Shown here: positions 17,465-18,490 of the stretch, one piece after another
Numbering within the stretch: the first letter of the stretch is position 1
How the letters are laid out: the number at the start of each line of letters is the position of its first letter
NCBI GenBank assembly: GCA_018969185.1
Contig: JAGWYT010000002.1
Location: 20,703-84,702, forward strand
Length of the DNA stretch: 64,000 nt
Source: Rickettsiales bacterium
Lineage (GTDB): Bacteria > Pseudomonadota > Alphaproteobacteria > Rickettsiales > UBA1997
Direction: 5' to 3'
The notes under the pieces: model-generated
Database searches by the model: none
Told to the model about the DNA's origin: nothing
Seen by the model: only the letters and a program-made list of their open reading frames with translations
Translations under genes and position numbers: made by a program

Positions 17465-18490
17465 TTATTTTTTGGTATTTACGTCAAGTCCAATATCAAC
17501 CGCTCTTACAGAATGAGTAAGCGCACCAATTGAAATAAAATCAATATCAAACTTAGAAATTTTTTTAATAAATTCTAAATTAATGCCACCAGACACTTCA
17601 ATTTTTGATTTTTTATTTAGAACCTGTTCAAAATCTCTACTGTGATGGCTGTCTAAATCTGATTTGCTGCGCTTCCGGTGCTCACGTATATCTATATACG
17701 CTGCGCGCCGGTTCTCGCAAATCAGCGTATCCAGCTCATCACAGCGAGATTTTGAATAGGTTCTTATTATTTTTATCGCCTTTTTTATCTCTGCAATTGT
17801 CATATTATCAAGCATGATAATGTCTGGCTTCTGCTTTACAGCCTCGGCAACTTGTGTTAAATTATCACACTCAATTTCAATTTTTAGTTTTTTATTTTTC
17901 TTTGCTAATTCTAAGGATTTACGGACGTTTCCGGCAGCAGCAATGTGATTGTCTTTAATTAAAATAGCATCAGATAAATCAAAGCGATGATTGCTTCCAC
18001 CGCCAATTTTAACCGCATATTTTTGTAATAAACGCAGTGAAGGAAAAGTTTTTCTAGTATCAAGAATTTTGATTTTTTTATTGTTAAGAGTTTTAACAAA
18101 TTTATTTGTTAAAGTTGAAATTCCGCTTAGATGTTGGAGTAAGTTTAGAATAACTCTTTCGGCAGCAAAAATTAGTTTAGCATCGCCAAACCCTTCAGCT
18201 ATTGATTTACCAGCTTTTATAAAATTTCCATCTTTAGCTTTTATTTTTAATTCAAGAAATGCATTTTGGAATTTCTTTGATTTTCTTAATTCATCAAAAC
18301 ATAGTTTTATTGCATCAACACCGCATAAAATTACATCTTCTCGAACATTGATTTCAAAAGTAATTTTATGATTATTTTTTATAGTTAAGTCAGAAGTAAT
18401 ATCATTATAGGCTTTATCTTCAGCAAGCCCAGCCTTGGTTATTTTAAATAATTCTTTAGTGAAATTGGTTTTACTTACAAGCTCTTGCAT
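17465..18490 (-). CDS. nadC: Nicotinate-nucleotide pyrophosphorylase (carboxylating), carrying an in-frame 42-codon repeat-element insertion
   Basis: LLQHLSGISTLT, DTRKTFPSLRLLQKYAV..GGGSNHR, ILIKDNHI, IEIECDNL, IIMLDNM and EVSGGIN...ISIGALTHS are all present. Confidence 0.88.
   Translation of the reverse strand: MQELVSKTNFTKELFKITKAGLAEDKAYNDITSDLTIKNNHKITFEINVREDVILCGVDAIKLCFDELRKSKKFQNAFLELKIKAKDGNFIKAGKSIAEGFGDAKLIFAAERVILNLLQHLSGISTLTNKFVKTLNNKKIKILDTRKTFPSLRLLQKYAVKIGGGSNHRFDLSDAILIKDNHIAAAGNVRKSLELAKKNKKLKIEIECDNLTQVAEAVKQKPDIIMLDNMTIAEIKKAIKIIRTYSKSRCDELDTLICENRRAAYIDIREHRKRSKSDLDSHHSRDFEQVLNKKSKIEVSGGINLEFIKKISKFDIDFISIGALTHSVRAVDIGLDVNTKK
17629..17754. repeat. Palindromic element (family B-like) inserted in frame in nadC
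   Basis: 126 nt (42 codons), visibly more GC-rich than the flanking sequence. Inverted arms are CAAAATCTCTACTGTGATGGCTG and CAGCTCATCACAGCGAGATTTTG. It encodes KSRCDELDTLICENRRAAYIDIREHRKRSKSDLDSHHSRDF, located between the conserved IIMLDNM and EVSGGI blocks. Confidence 0.75.

Follow-up and report, generated by a model that had tools for sequence, protein, structure and literature searches.

The nadC gene of a Rickettsiales bacterium, in a stretch of 64,000 nucleotides of contig JAGWYT010000002.1 (hereafter the window), carries in frame what is, in all likelihood, a MITE (miniature inverted-repeat transposable element) that has its ends in common with an IS5-family insertion sequence (IS) and that entered the gene by transposition. 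This reading is drawn from sequence comparison. For selfish DNA in frame within enzymes, Rickettsia is the best-known source, although how it inserts there has never been established, and the nadC case is a clear new example of this known phenomenon. It suggests that a standard cut-and-paste MITE can yield protein insertions like those of the Rickettsia palindromic elements (RPEs) in a Rickettsiales-like bacterium, here with the transposition signature intact. The features on which the argument depends are as follows, with positions given on the window.

17465-18490, minus strand: nadC, encoding quinolinate phosphoribosyltransferase (QPRTase), an open reading frame (ORF) of 341 codons with the insert, identified by Pfam, PDB and Foldseek
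17618-17764, minus strand: the 49 extra codons, residues 243-291 (RTYSK...FEQVL; RTYSKSRCDELDTLICENRRAAYIDIREHRKRSKSDLDSHHSRDFEQVL), 147 nt, delimited by orthologue and homologue alignments
17620-17763, minus strand: the MITE itself, 144 bp with GAACC and GGTTC as its ends, a long hairpin, delimited by family profile, fold and 16 full-length relatives
17746-17763, minus strand: inverted repeat of the 5' terminus, taken in the coding direction; minus-strand sequence GAACCTATTCAAAATCTC, nearly invariant in the family
17620-17637, plus strand: inverted repeat of the 3' terminus, taken in the coding direction; plus-strand sequence GAACCTGTTCAAAATCTC, matching the other arm at 17/18 positions
17764-17766, minus strand: upstream copy of the target-site duplication, TAA on the coding strand and TTA on the plus strand
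17617-17619, minus strand: downstream copy of the target-site duplication, TAA on the coding strand
17675-17712, minus strand (approximate placement by hand): apical core of the hairpin (~GCGCAG-CGTATAT...ATATACG-TGAGC), from the family alignment and local alignments

An insert of 49 codons in nadC

The window is A+T-rich (33% G+C). The nadC product is matched by both domains of the enzyme family, QRPTase_N (PF02749) and QRPTase_C (PF01729), the match to PF01729 falling in two stretches. QPRTases in the PDB match it with E values down to 2.8e-55, and here too the alignment is broken at the insert, into two stretches on either side of it (query 22-243 and 290-338). The next gene downstream, on the same strand, ends 2 nt before the nadC stop codon.

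Orthologous loci were sought in a collection with one genome per species, which returned 80 loci; the window's own species lies outside this collection. The nearest NadC relatives are those of freshwater Rickettsiales metagenome-assembled genomes (MAGs), with a best identity of 64% (L001), and a Rickettsia endosymbiont reaches 44%. On these identities the host does not belong to the genus Rickettsia. The encoded proteins of 19 of the 80 loci were aligned, a twentieth (L007) having given no ORF. In 19 of 19 the motif KAIKxI leads directly to NKKSxIE, and the window NadC has 49 additional residues between the two. The same is seen among database proteins. The best 119 NadC homologues among 5.8 billion proteins are 278-322 aa long, the sole entry of 341 aa being the window's own protein, and the insert is missing from all 45 of those homologues that were aligned.

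The first-pass annotation of the window had described a palindromic, G+C-richer segment with an open frame between the IIMLDNM and EVSGGI blocks of nadC, and such a segment is present there. The insert has a G+C content of 46% against 29% for the rest of nadC, and the G+C profile stands at about 0.5 across 17650-17749 against 0.2-0.35 in the surroundings. Its size had been put at 126 nt or 42 codons. The 126-nt core is a real hairpin, but the orthologue alignment sets the insert at 147 nt or 49 codons. A homologous segment at this position in unrelated orthologues would have spoken against the first-pass annotation; the 19 orthologous loci and the 119 best homologues have none.

Ends, target duplication and hairpin

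Inverted arms had also been recognised. They exist, but the limits given were too short, with the arms reaching 17614-17637 and 17746-17769, and neither the inverted repeats at the termini nor the duplicated 3-bp TAA had been noticed. In L001, the closest orthologue, the site is uninterrupted and reads TTAA-TAA-ATAAAAAA. When the 144-bp element and one TAA are removed from nadC, the sequence ...AAAATAA-TAA-ATAAAAAATC is restored, which compares with ...AAATTAA-TAA-ATAAAAAATC in that orthologue.

The element folds into a nearly perfect hairpin. The 126-nt core has a folding energy of -62.4 kcal/mol (z = -9.5), with none of 200 shuffles as good, and the whole 144-bp element one of -76 kcal/mol (z = -9.9). 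At 144 bp and with no transposase gene, it falls within the usual bounds for a MITE (below about 300 bp, no transposase gene). Its orientation is defined by the asymmetric core, and a profile of the family described below recognises the nadC copy with E = 2e-36 (nhmmer). Two of the six frames of this copy are free of stops, over 47-48 codons and with no homologues, and nadC reads one of them.

Other classes of element were considered and rejected. REPs are 20-40 bp long (PMC3733652), unlike this 144-bp element with terminal inverted repeats and a duplication, and on inspection a REP/RAYT-type element was set aside. An intein or intron was likewise discarded, the Pfam scan having revealed no Hint or endonuclease domain and Rfam no match. 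Across the window Rfam recognised two tRNAs only, and nothing on the element even at a permissive threshold, which means that it is no known structured RNA, intron or riboswitch. A literature search for the terminal sequence or the family matched only an unrelated primer.

A family of mostly intergenic copies

Metagenome contigs were scanned with one arm of the element (GAACCTRTTCAAAATCTC), and this gave 120 loci. Among them are 16 full-length relatives of the nadC copy, at 70-78% identity (profile E = 1e-25 to 1e-46). The supposition that the element would have other copies is thus confirmed, by these relatives and by diverged copies in metagenomes, and with orthologues that lack the insert the case for a mobile palindromic repeat in frame in nadC is borne out. 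In the alignment of 17 copies the ends are nearly invariant and the asymmetric apical core is conserved; the stems of the subfamilies differ but remain complementary. RNAalifold finds 54 pairs in the family, with compensatory double changes in 21.

The flanking triplets are identical in 14 of the 17 copies (the nadC copy counted), reading TAA...TAA or TTA...TTA when the ends are read as GAACC...GGTTC. The two classes are reverse complements of each other, as expected for insertion into TAA in either orientation. Short arm pairs in the fetched loci have identical flanks in 26 of 34 cases, all of them TNA. A TA duplication (IS630/mariner-type) and a 1-bp duplication were rejected, since only the 3-bp register equalises the flanks in both the TAA and the TTA classes.

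Most copies are intergenic, and their open frames vary from copy to copy. The genuine in-frame carriers found are nadC and one SpoU methylase gene only. The latter lies on a metagenome contig from another organism (L187), where a member of the same family at 945-1091, read in the same frame (FRTCSKSRFGELD...GRDFEQVLS), splits the gene (PF00588, 2.1e-33, in two stretches). A profile of the frame-2 peptide (an alignment of five peptides, RTCSKS...RDFEQVL) was compared with the 5.8 billion proteins and found four short hypothetical ORFs only. Searching the protein database with the insert as a single peptide gave no candidate, a weak negative as the window's own protein was also not returned. ORFs of the window, compared with the MITE-bearing contigs by tblastn, have no genes in common with them.

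The four database entries (P0121-P0124) are 'hypothetical proteins' of 53-92 aa that correspond to the frame-2 translation of MITE copies, one such entry coming from Alphaproteobacteria bacterium RIFCSPLOWO2_01_FULL_40_26. These entries are probably false gene predictions on intergenic copies. Inserts of this kind matter for annotation, as they can split domain matches (two stretches in Pfam), break assemblies and spawn spurious 'hypothetical proteins'.

Many further elements of MITE size (117-322 nt) combine these terminal arms with interiors of their own, between identical flanks of TAA, TTA, TGA or TCA. They occur at loci L082, L103, L106, L115, L121, L126, L127, L131 and L132, as well as at L144, L155, L161, L177, L188, L190, L193 and others. 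The whole set of MITE families seems to be served by one transposase type.

An IS5-family partner

Two of the fetched loci contain an IS bounded by the arms of the MITE.

L173 1202-2041: compact IS of 840 nt, with the transposase in shifted frames
L090 9720-10979: degraded IS of 1260 nt, with a nested PD-(D/E)XK (PF13366) ORF

The ORFs of these IS match DUF4096 (1.6e-21) and DDE_Tnp_1 (3.8e-07) in Pfam, and the joined frames of L173 match the NCBIfam model NF033580, 'IS5 family transposase', over its full length with 242 bits (cutoff 110). The transposases are about 70% identical to annotated ISAba37-family transposases; the tblastn matches fall into two pieces, as a frameshifted gene would give. 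An ISAba37-family copy of 872 bp reads TAA-GAGCCTATCCAG...CTGGATAGGTTC-TAA (also written TAA-GAGCCTATCC...GGATAGGTTC-TAA), and thus resembles the MITE in the kind of its ends and shares its TAA duplication. Duplications of 3 bp of the form TWA may further link such elements to the IS5 subgroups IS427 and IS1031 and to their eukaryotic counterparts, the Tourist MITEs of PIF/Harbinger. Because the same arms bound an IS5-family IS, the nadC element is best classed as an IS5-type MITE. Like other IS5-derived bacterial MITEs, it is small, has no transposase gene and shares its ends with a full-length IS, and its family has a 3-bp TNA duplication (mostly TAA or TTA), multi-copy subfamilies and a long hairpin. 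Unlike them, it lies in frame inside the gene of a conserved enzyme.

The insertion can be pictured as follows. A transposase acting in trans would have excised the element and inserted it, by cut and paste, at the TAA shared between codons I242 and N243 of nadC in its ancestral form. With 144 + 3 = 147 nt divisible by three and no stop in the frame in use, the outcome would be a full-length NadC with an excursion of 49 residues. By analogy, the excursion may be tolerated, as neutral or slightly deleterious, in the way that has been shown experimentally for an RPE in gmk of Rickettsia, where the RPE-bearing gene is translated and its product active (PMC2229807). In a gene that is needed, only insertions that satisfy the conditions of length and frame would survive, and such a filter would explain why the nadC copy is in frame. 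The hairpin would be a property of the element, the stems of which co-vary across subfamilies, and not an adaptation of nadC.

The NadC protein with its insert

All residues that are invariant across 46 aligned NadC proteins are kept in the window NadC. Among them, R146-K147, H168-R169, K179, E207 and D228 would correspond to the known substrate-binding residues. The AlphaFold2 model built on that alignment has a mean pLDDT of 89.7, with most of the core at 94-98 and the insert at about 50-70. In the model, the insert extends the host helix 232-242, continues as a loop and a short helix, and rejoins the protein at strand 296-300. When the model is compared with solved QPRTases by Foldseek, the target-normalised TM scores are 0.85-0.91 and the query-normalised scores 0.72-0.76, as expected for 49 residues added to an intact fold. 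In such barrels, the helix-to-strand connections lie on the N-terminal face, opposite the catalytic strand ends. The insert is thus predicted to be a low-confidence excursion in a helix-to-strand connection, away from the catalytic strand ends. With QRPTase_N and QRPTase_C, the invariant residues and the fold in place, the protein has the features of a QPRTase, and on sequence and model NadC with the insert is probably still a functional enzyme. It also makes a simple case in which to see what amount of foreign sequence can be absorbed by a helix-to-strand connection in an enzyme of the TIM-barrel-like kind.

The element in natural populations

Near-identical sequence is found in many freshwater and soil metagenomes. 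Contigs that span both junctions come from two further independent studies (X11, 17560-17777, with no differences; X14, 17553-17791, with one), and the insertion is therefore not an assembly artefact. In X1 and X2 the word depth across 17608-17783 reaches 3-5 times the depth over the flanks, and several contigs match about 17615-17765 only, at roughly 88-92% identity, before passing into unrelated sequence. At least three diverged copies with recurring foreign flanks are seen in runs of four studies (X1, X2, X7 and X15), at a depth like that of the nadC locus, which points to several diverged copies travelling with this genome. Variants in the populations comprise two synonymous and two conservative changes outside the insert, and one change, L279V, within it, numbers too small to test for selection. 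In the sampled populations the filled allele seems to be fixed.

Contigs in X6 (17620-18063; record 24) and in X2 and X7 (ending at 17620) join an unrelated left flank (CGTAAATCCCAATATGATGAAAATAATCGG) directly to a copy of the element that is about 99% identical to the nadC copy, and the X6 contig continues into nadC. Two readings fit this: a second copy, nearly identical, together with a chimera of the assembly graph, or an allele that has been rearranged.

Several points weigh against insertion by transposition, or against parts of the account built on it. No contig that skips the element, as an empty allele would, occurs in the 8 metagenome runs; the sole 'joint', a 237-nt contig in X11 with about 20 nt matched on each side, is probably the nadC of a more distant relative. 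The empty site is known solely from orthologues that are 64-68% identical, and recent mobility is thus no more than a possibility. The partner transposase was not found within the 64-kb window or in the related MAG loci. The association of the diverged copies with this genome comes from co-occurrence and similar depth, not from linkage. Finally, where the insert stands with respect to active site and dimer interface is a judgement from the order of secondary structures and general knowledge of the fold.

Alternative explanations

Host-associated Rickettsiales with reduced genomes often lose NAD synthesis, and the MITE might have inactivated or crippled nadC, leaving a pseudogene in the making with a frame that is open by luck. 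An open frame is not improbable, as two of the six frames of this copy lack stops, and an insert of 49 aa that is modelled with low confidence is a long one. However, the 341 codons contain no other lesion and the family-invariant residues are all retained. The only allele seen is the filled one, near-identical in samples of several studies, and the few variants outside the insert are synonymous or conservative. The downstream gene on the same strand also lies closely against nadC, ending 2 nt before its stop codon. We consider a decaying nadC unlikely, without being negligible.

A different origin would make the element a true member of an RPE family, or give it a direct common origin with the RPEs. 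RPEs are about 105-146 bp long (PMC2229807, PMC10969869), and the nadC element has a similar size, a long hairpin and an in-frame site in the gene of a housekeeping enzyme, the host being Rickettsiales-like (PMC2229807, PMC10969869). The window contains another palindrome in frame, in hisZ (see below). RPE-4, RPE-6 as well as RPE-7 have the motif ATGAC in common, and Wolbachia has similar elements (PMC3767692). This motif occurs once in some subfamily copies, although as a 5-mer it is weak evidence, and it does not occur in the nadC copy. The analogy with RPEs that the first-pass annotation had drawn holds for the effect on the protein: as with the palindromic elements of Rickettsia and Wolbachia, a palindrome of about 100-150 bp in Rickettsiales lies in frame in a conserved housekeeping gene, the added peptide is predicted to be solvent-exposed, and the enzyme tolerates the insert, as NadC probably does (PMC2229807, PMC10969869, PMC3767692).

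The differences concern host, mechanism and family. The host is not a Rickettsia, its NadC being 44% identical to that of a Rickettsia endosymbiont against 64% to those of freshwater MAGs. The nadC family has an identified duplication and a transposase partner, whereas for RPEs neither is established, the duplication being listed as unknown and no transposase being known (PMC2229807, Table 1). RPE-1 to RPE-3 are often found in ORFs with a conserved peptide, but the nadC family has no family-wide conserved frame and is not frequent in ORFs. Being mostly intergenic, with variable frames, it is not 'protein-coding' as has been reported for RPE-1 to RPE-3, and its peptide recurs in only four short hypothetical proteins out of the 5.8 billion. 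Membership of, or direct descent with, the RPEs is therefore very unlikely. The nadC element is RPE-like in effect and an ordinary DDE-transposase MITE in mechanism, and most probably not an RPE in the strict sense.

In-frame fusions of MITEs have been documented before, with RPEs singled out in reviews for their frequency (PMC2229807; PMC10969869). ERIC, the 107-bp Correia/NEMIS elements and QMITE1/2 of Coxiella resemble the nadC element in their occasional in-frame ORF fusions and hairpin-forming transcripts (PMC2229807, PMC5896051), but occur in different hosts. Unlike the nadC family, most of the bacterial MITEs reviewed have TA at their termini, and QMITE2 has direct repeats of 7-9 bp (PMC2229807, PMC10969869). 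Where QMITEs are fused to genes with a known function, they mostly lie at the ends of those genes (PMC5896051), whereas the nadC element lies in mid-domain of a TIM-barrel-like enzyme.

It could also be supposed that nadC has been given a new property, regulatory or structural, by co-option of the insert, be it through its 49 residues or through the hairpin in the mRNA. In the sampled populations the allele appears fixed, the independent insertion in the SpoU gene is read in the same frame, and the hairpin is very stable. On the other hand, orthologues have nothing at this site, the peptide has no homologues other than spurious short ORFs, the variant L279V alters the insert peptide within populations, and Rfam has no match. 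The covariation of the stems, moreover, belongs to the whole, mostly intergenic family. Taken together, a gain of function is highly improbable, and the passive tolerance of a transposed MITE is preferred.

An assembly artefact, suggested by De Bruijn contigs that break inside the element and in part join other flanks, or an ancient lineage-specific loop of NadC is virtually inconceivable and already refuted, given junction-spanning contigs from independent studies with 0-1 differences, a family with inverted repeats, duplications and an IS partner, and the lack of the insert in all homologues.

Other palindromes in the window

Three further palindromic elements lie in the window.

78-224 (147 nt) and 51638-51790 (153 nt): intergenic hairpin elements of 'family B', fold z about -10 each
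44689-44874, plus strand, in the ORF 43942-45063: palindrome of 186 nt in frame in hisZ, identified by Pfam, PDB and fold

The two family B copies are 70% identical to each other (E = 1e-14). Kinship of the nadC element with the segments 79-223 and 51646-51782 had been proposed by the first-pass annotation, and in part it stands. Family B and the nadC family have an apical core of about 30 nt in common (ACCGCAGC.TAT..ACATACGTGAGGAG), at the same position in the hairpin, with local scores of 38-39 against a null maximum of 29 in 100 shuffles. The nadC-family profile finds the two segments with E = 0.0018 (79-223) and 0.098 (51646-51782), and the global alignments of family B with the nadC copy have z scores of 6.6 and 7.0. 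Within the window, blastn matches the nadC element only to itself on the other strand and, weakly, to two intergenic palindromes. Beyond the core, however, the likeness is partial and judged by eye: the arms of family B (GATCTCTTTTAAAACTC, AAACCTCTTTAAAAGCCC) differ from GAACCTGTTCAAAATCTC but partly resemble it. Inspection by eye found no clean target duplication at 78-224 or 51638-51790.

The hisZ palindrome adds about 60 codons to the regulatory subunit of ATP phosphoribosyltransferase (PF13393 in two stretches; PDB 5m8h). Its arms (TCTAGGGCCTGTCATCAAATT / AATTTGACGACAGGCCCTAGA) are 95% complementary, its fold has z = -12, and its G+C content is 0.42 against 0.28. It is of another family than the nadC element; by eye its ends are like IS5-type arms, with CTAG or TA flanks, and no further copy of it was found in the fetched loci.

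Two palindromes in frame in housekeeping genes (nadC and hisZ) within 64 kb, and at least two element families with different ends and a conserved apical core in common, form the basis of a wider and speculative proposal, which we regard as rather improbable. The Rickettsiales-like lineage would be under an RPE-like regime of IS5-type MITEs, the palindromes of Rickettsia and Wolbachia might be eroded IS5 MITEs, and the core might be a functional module. R. conorii would have some 19 RPEs in ORFs in a genome of 1.27 Mb, and if these figures hold, two in-frame palindromes per 64 kb amount to at least the density in R. conorii. If the proposal were true, the long-unexplained 'protein-coding palindromes' could derive from IS5-family MITEs that lost their ends and duplications by erosion, and the shared core could reflect more than common descent.

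Further palindromes were observed in the window. An 86-nt palindrome at 12531-12616 (G+C 0.42 against 0.30, z = -10.8) lies at the 5' edge of a minus-strand open frame of 455 codons, and a 50-nt stretch of it is 82% identical to L020 10957-11005, just downstream of nadC in that MAG. Two intergenic hairpins, at 61886-61976 (perfect arms of 34 nt, z = -18) and 23058-23109 (arms of 25 nt, 92% complementary, z = -15), could be terminators or further small repeats. An imperfect palindrome of 121 nt at 58605-58725 (z = -5.3, G+C 0.43 against 0.36), inside a minus-strand open frame of 235 codons, is a possible further intragenic element.

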